Position numbers and translations under genes: made by a program. The notes under the pieces are model-generated. The model worked only from the letters and a program-made list of their open reading frames with translations, did no database searches and was not told the DNA's origin. This document shows, one piece after another, positions 1,335 to 63,536 of a stretch of DNA of 64,000 nt. Position 1 is the first letter of the stretch. Each line of letters starts with the position of its first letter. This DNA comes from Candidatus Zambryskiibacteriota bacterium (lineage in GTDB: Bacteria; Patescibacteriota; Minisyncoccia; Phycocordibacterales; WO2-35-19), in contig JASNZL010000004.1 of the NCBI GenBank assembly GCA_048499675.1, forward strand, positions 28,463 through 92,462. The letters are read 5' to 3'.

Positions 1335-1440
1335 AAACGAGTTACGAAGTACGAGGTACGACAAAAACTTAAATACGAAATTCTAAATCCAAAATCCGAA
1401 ACAAACCATAAATTCAAAATACAAATGTTCAAAACCCTGA
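1335..1440. repeat. Mosaic intergenic repeat block (motif A aaacgagttacgaagtacgaggtacgac plus motif B aattctaaatcc...ataaattcaaaatacaaatgttcaaaa)
   Basis: Near-identical blocks recur at 54492-54575, 55861-55895 and 46640-46703. Confidence 0.7.
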
Positions 1441-10716: not shown

Positions 10717-10832
10717 ATCGAGTTGCGAAGTACGAGATACGTGTAACAAAAAACAAAAAAGTCCTTAGTGGACTTTTTTGTTTTATTGTGTTATCTTTAA
10801 TATAAGCTTTAAGCCCTTATCTCTAAGTTTTT

Positions 10833-12717: not shown

Positions 12718-12826
12718 TTTTCAATTCATAATTTTGTAATTTTTTAATGAATTTTCATTGTATTAATTTTAAAATTACAAATTTATTCATTATTTAAAAA
12801 TTTTAAATTAAAAATTAAAAATTTTT

Positions 12827-37809: not shown

Positions 37810-38262
37810 ATGCAAGAAAACATAGATCCGAAATTTTGGGAACAAAAATTAAAAGATGAGGGTTTAGATATCCAAAGAGGGGAACCTGAGGAGGTGCCCA
37901 TAGAAGCAATAGAAGAAAATACTCTACTGAAACATATAGACGAAGAAACAATGAAATCTTTTTCCCTTTTAAGTACCAAGATGCAATCAAATATTATAGA
38001 TTATTTAAAAGAGCAGAAATCCCTAGGAATTGATACCCGAACCGCTTTGGATAAGTTGAAAGAAGTAGTAGAAAAAAGCCTTCTTCTAGAAGGTATGGAT
38101 TCTGAGGATTCAGATAAGAATCATAAACCAGAAAATAATTCCGAGGTAGAACCTGTGATAGAGGAACTAATTGAAGAAACTGTTGATGGTCTTATAAGAA
38201 GATTAGAAAAAATAAGACACAAAGAACCAAATACAGAGAGTGATAATAGGTGGGTAAACTAA
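37810..38262 (+). CDS. Hypothetical acidic protein
   Basis: 150 aa, Glu/Asp-rich, with no domain recognised. Confidence 0.3.
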   Translation: MQENIDPKFWEQKLKDEGLDIQRGEPEEVPIEAIEENTLLKHIDEETMKSFSLLSTKMQSNIIDYLKEQKSLGIDTRTALDKLKEVVEKSLLLEGMDSEDSDKNHKPENNSEVEPVIEELIEETVDGLIRRLEKIRHKEPNTESDNRWVN

Positions 38263-38317
38263 ACATAATTAATGGTTTTTCTACATTTTTGAGATTATAT
38301 TTGGTAGAATACCGTCT

Positions 38318-39955
38318 ATGACTCAAAAAGAGGCGCTGGATATATTGAAAACTGGTAGAAACGTATTCCTGACCGGACAGGCGGGAAGTGGAAAAACTTA
38401 CGTATTAAGGCAATATATAAATCATTTAAAAGAATTAAATGCTTCTTTTGGTGTTACAGCTTCAACGGGAATCGCAGCAACTCATATGGAGGGTATAACA
38501 ATCCACTCTTGGTCTGGAATGGGTATTCGGGATAGTTTGACCAAAAGCGACATTCTAGAAATTGCCGACAAAAGCCACGTAAGAAAAAAAATAAAAGACG
38601 CTAGTGTTTTGATAATAGACGAAGTATCAATGTTGCATCATTACCGAATCGACATTATTGATGCAATAGTGAGAGAAGTAAAAAGTAAAAATGAACCATT
38701 TGGTGGAATGCAGGTAGTTTTTTGTGGTGATTTTTTTCAACTCCCTCCAGTAAGCAGAAGTGGGGAGAGAGAAAGTTTTTTTGCCTATCATTCAGATTCT
38801 TGGAAAAACCTAAATCCAAAAGTTTGTTATCTATCCGAACAGCACAGGCAAAACGACTTAGAATACCTAGAAATTTTAAACTCCATAAGAGGAGCAAACT
38901 TGAGTGAAAAAACAAAAAAATCTTTGATGGATAGATTGGGAATCAAATCAGAATTTTCTCCAACAAGACTTTATACCCACAACATAGATGTAGACAAAGA
39001 AAATAATCTGGAATTAGGGAATATAAGTGGAAAAGTTTTTGAATATGAAATGAGAAGTAAAGGCAACAGAAATCTTGTAGAGTCACTAAAAAAAGGATGT
39101 CTAGCCCCAGAAATTTTAAAACTAAAAGTGGGTGCAAAAGTAATGTTTGTTAAAAATAATTTTGAGGAGGGTTATGTAAACGGAACGGTGGGAATAGTAG
39201 AGAAGTGTGATTACGAAGAGATACAAGTGAGAACAGTTTCTGGCAAACTAATTGATGCAAAAAGAGAATCTTGGGTTCTAGAAGAAGACGGCAAAATAAA
39301 AGCAGAAATAGACCAGTTTCCACTGCGTCTCGCTTGGGCAATTACAATACACAAAAGCCAAGGAATGTCCCTTGACTCTGCAGAAATTGATTTGGGAAAA
39401 GCTTTTGAAAAAGGGATGGGCTATGTGGCACTATCTCGAATTAGGACCCTTAATGGCCTATTTCTAAAAGGAATTAACGACAGGGCTCTGGAGGTAAATG
39501 ATGAGGTTTTGCGCCACGATAAAAAATTTAGGGAACTTTCAGAAAAAAACTCTTTTCATATTAGAACAATGGGAAAACCAAAAATAGAGGAGTTGCACAA
39601 AGAATTTAAAGAAAAAATCAAAAACTCACCAAAAAAAGAGAAAAAGTTAGATACCGTTTCCGAGACCAAAGCACTTCTAGATCAAGGTTTTGGAATAAAA
39701 GAAATAGCAAAAATGAGAAGCCTGAAAGCGGGAACAATATTGGACCATATAGAAGAAATTAAGGATGAAGACCCAAGATACAATATTTATAATTTGAGAA
39801 AAGAGATAGGAGCTACCAAATTTAAAAATATTTACAGTGCTTTCAAAAAAGTAGGCTTGAGTGAGGATGGCAAATTTAGACTAGCCCCCGTAAAAGATCT
39901 ACTTGGTAGCAAATATTCTTACGACGACATTCGCCTCGTCCGATTATTTTTGTAA
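38318..39955 (+). CDS. Pif1/RecD-like superfamily-1B DNA helicase with a C-terminal HTH-like extension
   Basis: Walker A GQAGSGKTY, Walker B LIIDEVSM, the Pif1 signature FCGDFFQLPPV and ITIHKSQG are present. Confidence 0.8.
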   Translation: MTQKEALDILKTGRNVFLTGQAGSGKTYVLRQYINHLKELNASFGVTASTGIAATHMEGITIHSWSGMGIRDSLTKSDILEIADKSHVRKKIKDASVLIIDEVSMLHHYRIDIIDAIVREVKSKNEPFGGMQVVFCGDFFQLPPVSRSGERESFFAYHSDSWKNLNPKVCYLSEQHRQNDLEYLEILNSIRGANLSEKTKKSLMDRLGIKSEFSPTRLYTHNIDVDKENNLELGNISGKVFEYEMRSKGNRNLVESLKKGCLAPEILKLKVGAKVMFVKNNFEEGYVNGTVGIVEKCDYEEIQVRTVSGKLIDAKRESWVLEEDGKIKAEIDQFPLRLAWAITIHKSQGMSLDSAEIDLGKAFEKGMGYVALSRIRTLNGLFLKGINDRALEVNDEVLRHDKKFRELSEKNSFHIRTMGKPKIEELHKEFKEKIKNSPKKEKKLDTVSETKALLDQGFGIKEIAKMRSLKAGTILDHIEEIKDEDPRYNIYNLRKEIGATKFKNIYSAFKKVGLSEDGKFRLAPVKDLLGSKYSYDDIRLVRLFL

Positions 39956-39977
39956 TTAAAAAAGGTATTCTATTCTT

Positions 39978-40838
39978 ATGAAAAATAATATAGAAATATG
40001 GACGGGGGAAATAGGGAGTTACAAACTGCTTGATAGTGGTGAAAGAGAGAAAATAGAAGAAATAGATGGTTTTAGAATTGTTAGACCTGAGCCGAGAGCT
40101 TGGTGGGGGAAAAGTGAAGCTAAGAGCTGGAATCTAGAAGCTAGAGAAAAACAAAAAAACGAATTTGAAACAGTAATTAATCTTGGAATAGGGGACATAA
40201 AAGCAAAAATAAAATACAAAAAAGGATCAAAACACATTGGCATCTTCCCCGAGCAGTTTCCACAATGGAAATGGGTTAAAGAACGAGTTACGAGGTACGA
40301 GGTACGAGGTACGAATAGAAAATTGAAAATTTTGAACCTATTCGGTTATACAGGTATTGCGAGTTTGGTTGCGGGAAGCGCGAGAGCTCTGGTCACTCAT
40401 GTTGACGCTTCAAAACAGAGTGTAGAGTGGGCAAAAGAAAATCAAAAATTATCAGGACTTGAAAACGCTCCCATTAGGTGGATCGTTGACGATGTCTTGA
40501 AATTTTTGAAAAGAGAACTAAGTCGGGGAGTTAAATACGACGCAATAATTATGGACCCCCCAAGTTACGGTAAAGGTCCAAAAGGAGAAGTTTGGAAGGT
40601 TGAGAGTAGTCTGACTCAACTACTTGATCTCTGCAAAAAACTCCTAAGCAATGACCCACAATTTATAATATTAAATATGTATTCAATAGAACTTTCTTCA
40701 ATATCCCTAAGAAATTTACTTGGTGATATTACAAAGGATTTGGGTGGGGAAATAATAAACGGCGAACTCACTCTAAAAGAAGAAGCGGGGGAGAGACTCC
40801 TTCCTTTATCCCTTTTTGCAATTTGGGATAAAAAATAG
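39978..40838 (+). CDS. Class I SAM-dependent RNA methyltransferase (RlmI/RlmK-like). It carries an in-frame copy of a dispersed repeat.
   Basis: The catalytic region AIIMDPPSYGKGPKGEVW and the SAM pocket GYTGIASLVAG are present. A triplicated gaggtac motif encoding RVTRYEVRGTNRK lies at 40282-40337. Confidence 0.7.
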   Translation: MKNNIEIWTGEIGSYKLLDSGEREKIEEIDGFRIVRPEPRAWWGKSEAKSWNLEAREKQKNEFETVINLGIGDIKAKIKYKKGSKHIGIFPEQFPQWKWVKERVTRYEVRGTNRKLKILNLFGYTGIASLVAGSARALVTHVDASKQSVEWAKENQKLSGLENAPIRWIVDDVLKFLKRELSRGVKYDAIIMDPPSYGKGPKGEVWKVESSLTQLLDLCKKLLSNDPQFIILNMYSIELSSISLRNLLGDITKDLGGEIINGELTLKEEAGERLLPLSLFAIWDKK

Positions 40839-40850
40839 TTTAATTAAAGT

Positions 40851-41804
40851 ATGAACAAAAGGATATTATCTGGGGTTAAACCCACAGGCAAACCGCATTT
40901 GGGAAATTACTTTGGTGCTATGCGCCAGTTTGTTGATTTACAAAATCAAAACGAGGGAGAGAATTTCTTTATGATTGCAAACTATCACGCTCTCAATTTT
41001 ATCCAAAATGGCGAAGAACTTAGAGAACTAACGGATAGTTTGATTATTGATTTCCTCGCAATAGGTTTGGACCCAAAGAAATCTAATATATTCAAACAAT
41101 CTGATGTTTCGGAGCACACAGAACTTGCTTGGATTTTTGATTCAATTACGACAGTCCCTTATTTGAAAAGAGCTCATGCTTACAAAGACGCACTAGCAAA
41201 GGGCGGGGAAGAGAGTGTGAGCGCTGGCACATTTACATATCCAATGCTTATGGCTTCTGACATTCTGCTCTACTCGCCGGACATTGTTCCTGTGGGCTAT
41301 GACCAAAAACAACACATTGAATTTGCAAGAGATACTGCAGAAAAATTTAATAGAATTTTCTCTGAAACTTTCAAAATGCCCGAGGATTATATTATTCCAA
41401 ATGTAGAAACAGTCCCCGGTATTGATGGTAAAAAAATGAGTAAGAGTTATGGAAATACAATAGGGCTTTTTGCAAACGATGAAGAAATTGAAGAAAAAGT
41501 GATGGCTATTGTTACAGATTCTAGTGGTGAAGTACCTACAAATGTTTATGCGATACATCGACTAATAAGAAATGAAGAGGAGATAAATAATATCTACGAA
41601 GATAATAAAGGTAAGTACAAAATACTAAAAGAAATTTTGATAGAAGATTTGAAAAATTTTATAAGACCTCTAAGAGAAAAAAGGCAAGAAATTGAATCAA
41701 ATAAAAACTATATTAGTGAAGCACTAAAAACAGGCACAGAAAGAGCCCGCGCGGTCGCGAGCTCAAAACTTGTTGAGGCCAAAGGAGCTATTGGTGCTCT
41801 TTAG
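40851..41804 (+). CDS. trpS: Tryptophan--tRNA ligase
   Basis: Class I HIGH-like GKPHLGNYFG and KMSKS (KKMSKS) are present. Confidence 0.9.
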   Translation: MNKRILSGVKPTGKPHLGNYFGAMRQFVDLQNQNEGENFFMIANYHALNFIQNGEELRELTDSLIIDFLAIGLDPKKSNIFKQSDVSEHTELAWIFDSITTVPYLKRAHAYKDALAKGGEESVSAGTFTYPMLMASDILLYSPDIVPVGYDQKQHIEFARDTAEKFNRIFSETFKMPEDYIIPNVETVPGIDGKKMSKSYGNTIGLFANDEEIEEKVMAIVTDSSGEVPTNVYAIHRLIRNEEEINNIYEDNKGKYKILKEILIEDLKNFIRPLREKRQEIESNKNYISEALKTGTERARAVASSKLVEAKGAIGAL

Positions 41805-45529: not shown

Positions 45530-45716
45530 AATTATCCTAATTTACCTAATTTCTAATTATTCTAAAGAAATAAGAAAGAAATTTTAGAATTAAAACAAAT
45601 AATTGTAGTTTTTGACCCTCAGATTTTTAATTTTGGATTTGTTTCGGATTTAGAGCTTAGAATTTAGTATTTAATTGTAGGTTACTTTATAAACCTTCTA
45701 ACTTCCCAACCTCCTC

Positions 45717-45755
45717 ATTCGTGTCATTCGCGCTAATTCGCGTATTGGTGTCGTG
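45717..45755. repeat. Motif F copy (attcgtgtcattcgc...gtattggtgtcg) upstream of scpA
   Basis: A second copy at 63447-63535 carries a 50 bp GC-rich internal insertion. Confidence 0.55.
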
Positions 45756-45804
45756 TTATTGACTTTCAAACTTTTTAACTAATTTTTATGCTAAAATATC
45801 CTTA

Positions 45805-46599
45805 ATGTTTGAAGATTTTAAGGTAAAGACAGAAGATTTTGAAGGACCCTTAGAGGTTCTTTTGGAACTAATCGAAAAAAGGAAACTGCACATAAGCACA
45901 GTGTCGCTATCAAAAGTGGCAGACGATTTTATAGAATTTACTAATTCTTTAGAAGAGAAAGATGGGAATTATATATCCAATCTAAGCGATTTTATTTTGG
46001 TTGCCTCAACACTTTTACTCATAAAATCAAAATCACTTTTGCCAACACTTGATTTATCCGAGGAAGAAGAAGAGAACATAGACGACCTAGAAAAAAGACT
46101 CCTTGAATACAAAAAGTTTAAGGAACTTTCTTTGGAGATAAGCAAAATGTTTGGTAATTTTCTATATTTCCCCCAAGAAAGAAAGAAAATAAATGTTGTA
46201 TTTGCTCCAACAAAGGAGATAAATTTGATTACACTAAAAGAAGCCTTGCAAAATGCATTGAACAATATTCCAGTCAAAGAGACAAAGCTCGCAGAAATCA
46301 CAGTCAAAAAAATAGTGAGTTTGGAAGATATGATAGATAAATTATCCGAGCGAATTCAAACAAGCATGAAAACTAGTTTTAAGAACTTCGCTAAAGCTAC
46401 GACAGGAGAGAATGATTTCTCAAAAGTAGGCAAAGGTGGACTTTATGAAATCCCAAAAGAAGAAAGGATAAATGTAATTGTTAGTTTCCTTGCTATGCTA
46501 GAACTAGTAAAACAAGGTATTATAAGAGTAAACCAAGAAAGCGAGTTTGATGATATAGAGATGGAGAATGATAGGGCAGGGGTACCGACATATAGTTAG
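45805..46599 (+). CDS. scpA: Segregation and condensation protein A
   Basis: FEGPLEVLLELIEKRKLHISTVSLSKVADDF is the ScpA N-terminus. Confidence 0.85.
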   Translation: MFEDFKVKTEDFEGPLEVLLELIEKRKLHISTVSLSKVADDFIEFTNSLEEKDGNYISNLSDFILVASTLLLIKSKSLLPTLDLSEEEEENIDDLEKRLLEYKKFKELSLEISKMFGNFLYFPQERKKINVVFAPTKEINLITLKEALQNALNNIPVKETKLAEITVKKIVSLEDMIDKLSERIQTSMKTSFKNFAKATTGENDFSKVGKGGLYEIPKEERINVIVSFLAMLELVKQGIIRVNQESEFDDIEMENDRAGVPTYS

Positions 46600-46792
46600 A
46601 AAGTTCATAAAGGCGCAAGTTATAAAGTAACCCGCAATTAAATACGAAATCCTAAATCCGAAATTCTAAACAAATTCTAAATCCGAAATTATAAATTCAA
46701 AACTTATGAGTAATTAGTGACTAAAAGTTTAAAATTAAATCATTGAAAATTTATTGAAAATTCTAAATTGAAAATTAAAAATTTTAAAAACC
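46600..46792. repeat. Repeat block (motifs B and C) separating scpA from scpB
   Basis: aatacgaaatcctaaatccgaaattctaaa... and tcattgaaaatttattgaaaattctaaattgaaaatt are shared with 54655-54700 and 57640-57695. Confidence 0.65.
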
Positions 46793-47338
46793 ATGAATCT
46801 CGAGTCAAAAATTGAAGCAATACTTTTTTATAAGAACGAGCCATTAAAGATAAAAAAATTATCAGAGATTTTGGGTGAATCAGAAAGCGCGATAAAAGAT
46901 TCTATAAAAAACTTATCCTCTTCACTCGAAGGAAGAGGAATATGTGTTGTGCAAACAGACGATGAAGTCTCTCTCGTGGTCTCCCTAGCACACAAAGAAC
47001 TAATAGATAAAATATCCCTAGACGAGATGAGTAAAGACATAGGCAAAGCTGGACTTGAGACTCTAGCAATCGTCCTATACAAAGGACCAATATCAAGAAG
47101 AGAAGTTGACCACATAAGAGGAGTTAATTCTACTTTTATCCTCCGAAACCTAACAATAAGAGGTTTGGTAGAAAAGGCCGAAAATACCGAAAACCAACGA
47201 GTACCAAAATACAAAGCAAGTATAAACCTACTTTCGCACTTGGGTATAAGAAACATTGAGGAATTGCCTGAATTTGCTATTTTAAATAGTAAGGCAAGTG
47301 AGGTAATACAAGAAGCAGAAACAGCACAAGAAGAATAA
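46793..47338 (+). CDS. scpB: Segregation and condensation protein B
   Basis: IEAILFYKNEPLKIKKLSEIL and a tandem winged-helix profile are present. Confidence 0.85.
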   Translation: MNLESKIEAILFYKNEPLKIKKLSEILGESESAIKDSIKNLSSSLEGRGICVVQTDDEVSLVVSLAHKELIDKISLDEMSKDIGKAGLETLAIVLYKGPISRREVDHIRGVNSTFILRNLTIRGLVEKAENTENQRVPKYKASINLLSHLGIRNIEELPEFAILNSKASEVIQEAETAQEE

Positions 47339-48290: not shown

Positions 48291-48527
48291 ATATAAGAGA
48301 TAAGATATAAGAGATATGAGGATGATGGTTTGAAAGTTTATAAAGTTGGAAAGTTCATAAAGTTACCCACTAATCCGCGAATGCACACTAATCATACGAA
48401 TAAAAACCGGAAATTTAAAGATTGAATAATTGAAAATTTAAACAATATTTAAAAATTAAAAATTACAAAATTAAAAATTGATTAGTAATTAGTTATTCAT
48501 AACTCGTACTTCGTTACTTCGTATATC
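48291..48527. repeat. Repeat block (motifs D, C, E and a reverse-complement copy of A) preceding direct repeat 1
   Basis: gttacccactaatccgcgaatgcacactaatcatacgaataaaa matches 55937-55985. cataactcgtacttcgttacttcgtat is the reverse complement of motif A. Confidence 0.65.
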
Positions 48528-54419: not shown

Positions 54420-54774
54420 ATAGTAAAAAATTAATAAATTTATATAGTTTATCTCTGAAATTTAGGGTATTATGAGAGATACGGGTTCAAAAAACGAGAT
54501 ACGAAGTACGAGATAAGATAAAATTCTAAATACGAAACAAATTATAAATTCAAAATACAAATGTTCAAAAATAGATAATTTAACATGGAATTTGTGTTTT
54601 AAATAATAAGATTGGTAAACATTAGTAATTAATGAGTTAGAATTAAAAATTAAATCATTGAAAATTTATTGAAAATTCTAAATTGGAAATTGAAAATTTA
54701 TTAGCGAAATTAGCGTGCATTAGTGGATTGGTGGGTAGTGATTTTACACTTTGATATTTAAATTTTAAATTATT
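54420..54774. repeat. Repeat block (A, B, C, E, and D in reverse complement) preceding mraY
   Basis: aaacgagatacgaagtacgagataag, attctaaatacgaaacaaattataaattcaaaatacaaatgttcaaaa and the attgaaaatttattgaaaattctaaattggaaattgaaaattt motifs are present. Confidence 0.65.
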
Positions 54775-55836: not shown

Positions 55837-55860
55837 CGCGACACAAATAAACGATTATGG

Positions 55861-56030
55861 AAACGAGTTACGAAGTACGAGATACGAGTAACGATATATT
55901 TGAAATTAAAAATTGAAAGATTGAAAATTAAAATAAAAAACAAAAGTAACCCACCAATCACACGAATTTACACGAATCATAACGAATAAATATTAGTAAG
56001 ATTAGTATGCATTAGTAATTGGTGTGTTGT
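55861..56030. repeat. Repeat block (A, C, D, E) between mraY and ftsW
   Basis: aaacgagttacgaagtacgagatacgagtaacgat and gtaacccaccaatcacacgaatttacacgaatcataacgaataaa are present. Confidence 0.65.
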
Positions 56031-57577: not shown

Positions 57578-57695
57578 CGAAAGAAGTTTTACAGGAATGT
57601 TATTAATTATGTTAAAATTTGGGTAATTAATTGAAAATTGAAACATTGTAAATTTAATGAAAATTCTAAATTATAAATTGAAAATTTAAAATAAT

Positions 57696-58879: not shown

Positions 58880-59030
58880 AAACTCTAAACAATAAAAACA
58901 TAAAAAAATTCAAATCTCAAAATTTTTTTAATTTTTAATTTTTAATTTAGAATTTTAAATAAATTTTCAATGGATTTAATTTAAAATTTAATCCTTACTC
59001 GTAACTCGTGTTTCGTAACTCGTCTCTTTT
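58880..59030. repeat. Repeat block (motif C plus a reverse-complement motif A) upstream of gltX
   Basis: ccttactcgtaactcgtgtttcgtaactcgtctc is the reverse complement of motif A. It is followed by TGTGCTATAAT, an extended -10, at about 59027-59038. Confidence 0.55.
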
Positions 59031-63411: not shown

Positions 63412-63536
63412 ATTTTCAATCTTTCAACCTTCAATCTATCGTACCTCGTTTCCCCAATTCGTGTCATTCGCCCGCCTGCAACGCCTGAAGCGTAGCACTG
63501 GCGGGCAGGCATACATTCGTGTATTGGTGTCGCATA
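63412..63536. repeat. Motif A/C (reverse complement) plus a motif F copy with a GC-rich internal insertion
   Basis: aattcgtgtcattcgc[ccgcctgcaacgcctgaagcgtagcactggcgggcaggcatacattcgt]gtattggtgtcg. Upstream is ggggaaacgaggtacgatagattgaaggttgaaagattgaaaatt in reverse complement. Confidence 0.5.

Follow-up and report, generated by a model that had tools for sequence, protein, structure and literature searches.

An in-frame heptanucleotide tandem array in the interdomain linker of a PF10672 methyltransferase gene from a Candidatus Zambryskiibacteriota bacterium and its counterparts in related genomes

How can a tandem repeat with a 7-nt unit, which otherwise occurs between genes, be carried in frame by a conserved enzyme gene? 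The question is raised by a methyltransferase gene (39978..40838, + strand) in a 64,000-nt stretch of DNA from a Candidatus Zambryskiibacteriota bacterium (contig JASNZL010000004.1; the whole stretch is called the window below). In the original prediction, which was made from the letters of the window, a dispersed intergenic repeat consisting of a motif A and a motif C was recognized at 40282-40337 within this gene, and was compared to the in-frame insertions of Rickettsia palindromic elements (RPEs). This description was borne out in part by our analysis: the quoted sequence lies inside the coding sequence, the open reading frame (ORF) stays open, the translation ...KERVTRYEVRGTNRKLKILNLF... 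is correct, and every other copy of motif A that was found lies between genes. A repeat common to spacers is indeed translated in frame between the N-terminal and the Rossmann domains, at a place where the protein is longer than the family norm.

The repeat is a heptanucleotide tandem array, ACGAGTT-ACGAGGT-ACGAGGT-ACGAGGT-ACGA, at 40283..40314 on the + strand, as delimited by Tandem Repeats Finder (TRF), the lag-7 score and the register of the orthologs. TRF assigned to these 32 nt a period of 7 with 4.6 copies and 96% matches. When at least 16 of 21 self-matches at a given lag were taken to define an array, the lag-7 self-match was 20/21; none of 30 codon-shuffles of all 54 genes reached 18/21, and this is the only strong lag-7 array in the ~56 kb of coding DNA of the window. 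As a 26-mer with up to three mismatches, motif A gave six matches (at 1336, 10717, 40282 in two overlapping registers, 54493 and 55862), where 0.00 were expected from 100 shuffles, and the pattern ACGA-N3-ACGA-N3-ACGA, present at five intergenic sites and in the coding sequence, had no occurrence in 200 shuffles. The array is translated as (E)RVTRYEVRGT(N), and its first unit overlaps the native, conserved codons of R103-V104. The gain or loss of one unit leads to a stop at codon 114-116, within three to five codons, and the loss of three units keeps the frame. The hairpin potential of the region is null (minimum free energy -4.0 kcal/mol, z +0.05 to +0.9 for 40275-40320, 40282-40337 and 40240-40360), and neither terminal inverted repeats nor a target-site duplication are visible in the flanks GTTAAAGA and ATAGAAAA of the array.

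To what part of the protein does the array contribute? From its open ORF, Pfam match (42.2 bits with a cut-off of 27, E = 8e-11), alignment to PDB 2IGT and synteny, the 286-aa product is assigned to the class I S-adenosylmethionine (SAM)-dependent methyltransferases of the RlmI/RlmK-like family PF10672. SAM-binding motif I (LNLFGYTG) and motif IV (IMDPPSYG) are both present and conserved. The nearest solved structure is 2IGT (E = 4.8e-63), and the similarity to the RlmI structure 3C0K is only weak (E = 1.4e-11); the label '23S rRNA (cytosine1962-C5)-methyltransferase', which homologs carry at the Joint Genome Institute (JGI), is an automatic naming. The protein was aligned over its full length to 45 orthologs and to 2IGT, and LNLFGYTG is invariant in all 45. 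In the homolog search, ~8,000 homologs were scored and the best 120 (58-74% identity), all metagenomic, were used; the few among them with a source name are called Parcubacteria, Paceibacterota, Zambryskibacteria or Patescibacteria. From these 120, 116 could be parsed through the motifs FPEQ..W and LNLFGYTG, which flank the interdomain linker.

The linker of the window gene, placed by the ortholog alignment and an AlphaFold2 model, extends from K98 to K117 (20 aa; 40269..40328, + strand) between FPEQ..W and (K)ILNLFGYTG. In Parcubacteria it is hypervariable, with 12-32 aa (median 21), and has 15 aa or less in only 9 of the 116 orthologs. In the distant homologs it is exactly 15 aa in 37 of the 57 that were readable; this outgroup, here and below, consists of metagenomic homologs among the matches listed, mostly ~40% identical, from genomes of 26-73% GC. 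The HMMER alignment places a five-residue gap of 2IGT opposite TRYEV. Judged from these alignments, the excess over the canonical form is five residues (20 aa against 15), and not the insertion of ~18 aa that had been expected. In the AlphaFold model, built from the 45-sequence alignment, the mean predicted local distance difference test score (pLDDT) is 87.4 and that of the array-encoded block 85-86. The model has a helix at residues 91-109, a loop at 110-116 and strand beta-1 at 117-121, so that the array-encoded residues R103-N113 would extend the end of the helix and the next loop, making a permissive surface site plausible.

The second half of the reported element fared differently. In the ortholog, outgroup and 2IGT alignments, motif C (40315..40337, + strand) corresponds to the native codons N113-R-K-L-K-I-L-N-L121. 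Its peptide R-K-L-K-I-L-N runs into LNLFGYTG, the start of SAM-binding motif I; distant homologs end the linker with ..G-R-P-x-K, followed by V-L-N-L-F-G-Y-T-G, and DRPLKVLNLF of 2IGT aligns to NRKLKILNLF with no gap. The 16-mer gaaaattgaaaatttt gave five near-matches with 1.3 expected, and 1 of 100 shuffles reached five. Because the codons are AT-rich, K-L-K-I-L-N is almost forced to read AAATTGAAAATTTTGAA. By these comparisons motif C is ancestral coding sequence of the RPLK-VLNLF type and part of no insertion; as a dispersed repeat it was not confirmed, and the pairing of A with C that had been read in this gene is therefore an illusion.

Is the array peculiar to this gene, or do orthologs have it as well? 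We compared the linkers in a 7-nt register that starts from the codon of a conserved R/K/Q-[V/I] pair. The units read CGAGTTA CGAGGTA CGAGGTA CGAGGTA in the window, CAAGTTA AAAGTTA CGAAACT CGAAATA in locus L110, CGAGTTA AAAAATA TGAGTTA AAAAATA in L111, AGAATTA TGAATTA TGAATTA AGAAGTA in L112, AAAATTA AGAATTA TGAATCA AGAATTA in L113 and AGAATCT CGAATCT AGAATCT AGAATCA in L002. All six have four units in one register with a start at native codons. Within a lineage the units are alike in four of the six (identity 0.93, 0.86, 0.83 and 0.79), and L110 and L111 look decayed (0.50 and 0.60); the same unit position compared between lineages has an identity of 0.52-0.69. Units that are homogenised within lineages and divergent between them are the pattern expected from the concerted evolution of a resident array.

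Arrays at the register of the window were found in orthologs with 45-70% protein identity, L110 and L111 being at ~65-70%, and a more distant homolog with 45% identity (L032) reads AGAGTTC AGAGCCA AGAGCCA AGAGTTA AGAGTGC from the same R-V. The close and intermediate orthologs compared hold a homologous array at the same codons, and distant homologs with a 15-aa linker lack it. The median best-window score for 7-periodicity of the linker was 0.64 in Parcubacteria and 0.38 in the outgroup (Mann-Whitney; P = 3.6e-7). Among 11 other Parcubacterial loci, five (L001, L002, L003, L112 and L113) have a linker that passes 16/21, as the only or main array in the fragment; in L110 the array that passes 16/21 is located not in the linker but in the variable region near the N terminus, and the other five loci are without any.

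In L001 the array and its copy number are identical to those of the window. L001 is a near relative with flanking genes 93-96% identical, and its identical array is accordingly ascribed to recent shared ancestry; we considered the 30-nt identity as a sign of selection at the DNA level and dropped this idea because of the close relationship. The original prediction had named orthologs with the same peptide segment but without the repeat as what would speak against it. Such orthologs were found in part only: RVTRYEVRGT is identical in P0002, although this is a near relative with the repeat, and in P0003, P0004, P0013 and P0014 the segment has the same length but a diverged sequence.

In our opinion, which is held with some reserve, the array is probably a heptanucleotide microsatellite resident in the gene, which originated at this site, undergoes concerted evolution and is tolerated by the helix-loop linker. 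In an ancestor of the clade, the native R-[V/I] codons of a 15-aa linker (CGAGTTA here) would have been duplicated head to tail, presumably by replication slippage or unequal exchange, to give a four-unit array, which would add a few residues at the protein surface to the last helix and the loop that precede beta-1 of the Rossmann fold. Since the gain or loss of a 7-nt unit destroys the gene, purifying selection would hold the total length in frame. The units may have been homogenised repeatedly, either by conversion within the array or by slippage followed by a compensating change, and each lineage would therefore have acquired its own unit (ACGAGGT here, and ATGAATT, AAGAATT, AGAATCT and AGAGCCA elsewhere). 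The same short-period repeat process would also have filled the spacers of this genome with 7-nt arrays, and the ACGA unit that is common to the linker and 5-7 spacers would most likely reflect occasional ectopic conversion or copying in either direction.

The spacers of the window have a marked 7-nt habit. We found 15 arrays at lag 7 in the 64 kb, compared with 0-3 at lags 4-13, and the harmonic lag 14 gave nine; 14 of the 15 are intergenic, within the 12.5% (~8 kb) of the window that is intergenic. The autocorrelation of the intergenic DNA has maxima at 7, 14 and 21, and coding DNA has only the 3-nt period. The array units are ACGARGT (ACGAGGT/ACGAAGT), TAAATCC, ATTGAAA, AGAGATA, TTAAAAA and ATTTGGA, the ACGA-type unit being present at 5-7 intergenic sites. 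The array at 1336..1361 (+ strand), 18 nt past the stop codon of the pyruvate kinase gene, is 25/26 identical to the copy in the coding sequence. It is followed by a ~70-nt stretch common to the copy at 54493..54518 (+ strand), which lies in a composite repeat of ~100 nt with 85-90% identity to 1335-1434. The array at 55862..55894 (+ strand) has 4.6 units, starts 25 nt past a stop codon and is followed by A/T-rich arrays of 7-8 nt; that at 58997..59023 (- strand) is 24 nt upstream of the gltX start, in a 52-nt inverted match to 55860-55911. Three further copies are weak or short, namely a degenerate one with three mismatches directly after a stop codon (10717..10742, + strand), a degenerate and partly 8-periodic one (48497..48525, - strand) and one of two units (63439..63451, - strand). 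Among the sites listed for motif A in the original prediction, 10719 and 48499 are weak; the copy at 63439 had been missed. Three of the four forward intergenic copies begin 0-25 nt past a stop codon, and the composites holding ACGA-type copies occur in both orientations. Between the array of the coding sequence and the spacer composite, only the periodic part of 26-32 nt is shared, and the identity drops to 67% when 46 nt are compared.

Some other features of these spacers were also noted. Right after the 10717 array, 10743-10790 contains a hairpin and then a T-run (AAAAAAGTCCTTAGTGGACTTTTTTGTTTT), which by eye resembles an intrinsic terminator, so that this array would sit between a stop codon and a terminator. 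A/T-rich heptamer arrays (ATTGAAA/TTCTAAA/TTAAAAA) are present at 46753-46788, 57658-57694, 12794-12823 and 54668-54701; the ATTGAAA-type arrays stop 2-5 nt short of start codons (ATG at 46793, 57696 and 12827), which recalls the TAACTGA repeats of Beggiatoaceae. The 29-mer ATTGAAAATTTATTGAAAATTCTAAATTG occurs with 100% identity both at 46742 and at 54657. The scpA gene (45805-46599, PF02616) is flanked by inverted 96-nt TAAATCC-type heptamer arrays (45597-45692 and 46620-46715), which are 72% complementary. A GC-rich hairpin at ~63469-63507 (-28 kcal/mol and z = -2.5 for the minus strand, in a genome of 34% GC) lies between the flanks TTCGTGTCATTCGC...ATTCGTGTATTGGTGTCG, and this motif is present once more upstream of scpA (45717-45757); Rfam gave no match for this hairpin region (63455-63525).

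Outside this genome, spacer arrays number 0-2 per 20 kb in related loci, compared with 14 in the 64-kb window, and ACGA-type arrays were seen, among ~150 kb of related Parcubacterial loci, only in this genome and in the linker of L001. L110 and L111 already have ACGA-like units (GTTACGA, AACTCGA and AATACGA; CGAGTTA) at these codons, so that the array in the gene is older than the proliferation in the spacers of this genome. A transfer from gene to spacer is then as easy to suppose as one from spacer to gene. We also searched the species genomes of GTDB with the 21-mer GTTACGA-RGTACGA-GRTACGA and obtained 26 loci (L004-L029), when ~1 would be expected for a random 21-mer of equal degeneracy; this expectation is estimated from the database size and is not a matched-heptamer control. 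Their hosts are Bacteroidota, Chloroflexota, Acidobacteriota, Kapaibacteria, Streptomyces and others, with no Patescibacteria, and thus ACGA-type heptamer arrays are not peculiar to the lineage studied here. In all 26 the 21-mer is inside longer heptamer arrays, (GGTACGA)n/(GTTACGA)n, of up to >10 units, which often abut arrays of other units (GTTACTA, GTCGTGA or GTAGACA) or the inverted complement. No frame of the GGTACGA unit contains a stop codon, and GC-rich genomes are common among the hosts. Among viral contigs there were no matches for the TTGAAAA-type 24-mer and three uninformative ones for motif A.

Repeats of this kind have been described in other bacteria. Heptameric simple sequence repeats (SSRs) are over-represented in many bacteria, with polymerase slippage as the proposed cause, and include the short tandemly repeated repetitive (STRR) heptanucleotides of cyanobacteria, GGGAATC of Xanthomonas and GGGGAYT of Nostoc (PMC4692102). 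MacGregor (2015) described TAACTGA direct repeats of Beggiatoaceae, cyanobacteria and Bacteroidetes, which are mostly intergenic and near start codons, and mentioned 'larger assemblages of heptamer repeats' in some Bacteroidetes spacers; the few copies inside ORFs were mostly at protein ends (PMC4679880). The arrays of the window resemble STRR and TAACTGA repeats in their head-to-tail 7-nt units in 2 to tens of copies, their overwhelmingly intergenic position near start and stop codons, the adjoining of different heptamers in one spacer, occasional copies at tolerant places of ORFs, the rapid turnover between relatives and the slippage proposed as their cause. Their units (ACGAGGT, ATTGAAA, TAAATCC, AGAGATA and TTAAAAA), however, differ from those of the named families (TAACTGA, the STRR consensus and GGGAATC), and on the basis of their sequence we place them in the general heptanucleotide-repeat class and not in a named family. 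Unlike in the known cases, the copy within the ORF is internal, in the interdomain linker of a conserved enzyme rather than at a protein terminus, and arrays at orthologous codons in many lineages are not described there. Our literature search found no report of such heptamer repeats in Patescibacteria/Parcubacteria of the Candidate Phyla Radiation (CPR). The tandem repeats of Borgs also occur between and within genes, add peptide segments, evolve fast, arise locally and create new disordered protein regions (PMC9879509). The present array differs in that its 7-nt unit shifts the frame with each repeat, only the total length being in frame, in that it is very short and lies in a bacterial chromosome, and in that it persists across orthologs rather than being of recent origin.

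The same linker holds other repeats in other genomes. In L002 and L003 it contains a second array, of TTGAAAA/TTCTAAA units, and a 27-mer of the coding linker of L002, ATTGAAAATTCTAAATTGAAAATTAAA, is identical to 46753-46779 in a spacer of the window. The linker of L115 has an 8-nt array, AAAGATTN, that of L117 a GC-rich heptamer array, and 7 of the 116 orthologs have a 44-nt GC-rich hairpin at this site, for example L114 (dG -40 kcal/mol, z = -7.1). In L114 (3123-3206, ortholog P0048, in a genome of 38% GC) the palindrome CCCCTCCCCAACCCCTCCCCTTAGGGGAGGGGCAAGGGGTGGGG is translated as NPSPTPPLRGGARGG, and its G-rich half, with four G4 runs, is quadruplex-like. From its sequence, the L114-type hairpin looks like a palindromic in-frame insertion. 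Linker 12-mers of L114-L117 had no match elsewhere in those loci. TTGAAAA-type 7-nt arrays were also noted within the C-terminal coding region of gltX (L002 20651-20686 and L003 20233-20268), which may be another site of in-frame arrays.

Several of these data weigh against an array that simply arose in place. The array of the coding sequence agrees with the spacer copy at 1336 in 25/26 positions, the GTT of the first unit being common to both, and the spacer copies stand in dispersed composites of ~100 nt with 85-90% identity in both orientations, so some dispersal mechanism must exist in this genome. The 27-mer shared by the L002 linker and the spacer at 46753-46779 would be hard to obtain by independent slippage, and the 44-nt GC hairpin of 7/116 orthologs looks like a true insertion at the same site. 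Furthermore, a periodicity that is kept across lineages with 60-70% identity outlasts the expectation for a neutral microsatellite, although the arrays of L110 and L111 do decay. Simple slippage therefore leaves the links between coding and spacer arrays not fully explained.

A broader proposal, which we regard as rather unlikely but worth stating, is that Parcubacteria and related CPR lineages have in this linker a conserved 'repeat niche' within a gene. There, the DNA-level process that normally makes spacer arrays, or a factor that reads periodic repeats, would time and again build, homogenise and exchange 7-8-nt arrays and GC hairpins at a single codon position. Such a niche might be kept for a function at the nucleic-acid level, for example the control of the methyltransferase-trpS transcript, or as points of recombination between coding and spacer DNA. 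If this were true, it would be the first non-triplet tandem array known to be conserved among orthologs and kept in frame.

Could the DNA or the mRNA, and not the peptide, be what matters? A cis-acting element, read by a factor for short periodic repeats that also acts on the spacer arrays, could modulate translation, mRNA stability or transcription of the methyltransferase-trpS unit, the peptide being a by-product. The periodicity kept in the same register across lineages with differing units is consistent with this, suggesting that the period itself matters, as are the non-random positions in the spacers: three of the four forward ACGA arrays past stop codons and the ATTGAAA-type arrays before starts. 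There is also an echo of the TAACTGA repeats upstream of starts, for which a post-transcriptional regulator has been proposed (PMC4679880), and (GGTACGA)n arrays in the 26 loci belong to unrelated phyla. The units differ between lineages, however, and hence there is no conserved recognition sequence. A scan of the whole window with Rfam at its gathering thresholds and for tRNA gave no match, a promoter and terminator scan of 39900-40900 was at background level around the array, no secondary structure is predicted there, and no candidate binding protein was found. In L110 and L111, moreover, the array is decayed and the gene is retained. We consider a cis-acting element improbable.

To an equal degree we doubt that the array is a mobile repeat, similar to an RPE or a miniature inverted-repeat transposable element (MITE), that was inserted in frame into the linker or copied there by ectopic gene conversion. 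The match to 1336, the dispersed spacer composites in both orientations and the five additional residues would agree with such an event. So would the presence of unrelated repeat classes at the same site elsewhere (the hairpin with z = -7.1, and the TTGAAAA arrays with their 27-nt identity) and the restriction of ACGA-type arrays to this genome and its near relative among the Parcubacterial loci. RPEs are palindromic elements of ~100-150 bp that insert in frame and encode a conserved peptide module (PMC10969869). The likeness to them is one of outcome only, that is, a spacer repeat translated in frame at a tolerant site of a conserved enzyme whose ORF is open. The array is a tandem heptamer of 32 nt, it is not palindromic and has neither terminal inverted repeats nor a target duplication; the part shared with the spacers is periodic only, and its first unit is native R-V, as motif C is native too, so that it appears to have grown from native codons. 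ACGA-like units already stand at the codons of L110 and L111 (~65-70% identity), predating the spacer proliferation, and orthologs have arrays in the same register. The RPE-style insertion that had been proposed is not supported by these results.

A contingency locus, at which 7-nt slippage would switch the methyltransferase off and on by frameshift (phase variation), is quite improbable. What suggests it is the non-triplet unit in an ORF, with a stop soon after the gain or loss of one unit, and the 96% perfection of the array, together with the heptanucleotide SSR of hmw1A in Haemophilus influenzae (PMC8262952, PMC12721329), in which likewise a non-triplet 7-nt unit allows slippage to switch expression. 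Unlike such loci, the present array has only ~4 units, their number is constant in the relatives examined (four in all six compared, and the same in L001), and no polymorphism was observed. In addition, 116 of the 120 best homologs parse through both motifs flanking the linker, so that frameshifts in the array are unlikely, and no truncated variant was seen. The gene belongs to a housekeeping-type RNA/SAM methyltransferase family with conserved synteny, and not to surface or restriction-modification genes. Lastly, chance resemblance from AT-rich codon usage and low complexity is practically negligible, since it is within reach for motif C only and is ruled out for motif A, far beyond chance in the 26-mer shuffles, the ACGA-N3 shuffles and the codon-shuffles alike.

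With regard to the surroundings of the gene, Pfam matches identify a Pif1-family helicase gene before it (38318-39955) and trpS after it (40851-41804), and the order helicase-methyltransferase-trpS is kept in 10 related Parcubacterial loci. The GC content across the window is 31-38%. Within the methyltransferase gene, a part of the N-terminal region (40028-40226) gave no blastn alignment to L001, though the flanks are 91-96% identical, and opposite it L001 carries a segment that is 16 aa longer and looks unrelated. It would seem that the gene has here a second region that is hypervariable or has recombined. It includes a weak 7-periodic stretch of GAAGCTA-like units (40116..40145, + strand; TRF period 7, 65% matches), whose lag-7 score of 15/21 is inside the codon-shuffle null and only suggestive; at the equivalent place L110 shows a clearer array (16/21), and the region around it is unalignable both to the near relative L001 and to 2IGT. 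Two ORFs of L001 are absent from the window: one of 161 aa between the methyltransferase gene and trpS (L001 4355-4840, against 40838-40851 in the window), and one of 175 aa on the opposite strand before the Pif1 gene (L001 1188-1715, against 38262-38318). Such differences amount to gene insertions or deletions on a small scale in a pair of genomes with ~93-96% identity.

Non-triplet microsatellites within genes are as a rule either short-lived or put to use as on/off switches. In the present case, a 7-nt array has kept its frame, at the same codons of a conserved enzyme, over a wide part of the CPR, with units homogenised in each lineage. It offers a natural system for asking how heptamers originate and why the period is 7, whether coding and spacer arrays exchange sequence, and how new linker peptides arise in tiny, streamlined genomes. 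In the annotation of CPR proteins, RVTRYEVRGT, LKIENSKLKI, NPSPTPPLRGGARGG and similar peptides are to be read as translated repeats and not as conserved protein motifs. Most interesting of all is the question why, across much of Parcubacteria, a single codon position in a housekeeping gene has long been host to 7-8-nt arrays and hairpins.

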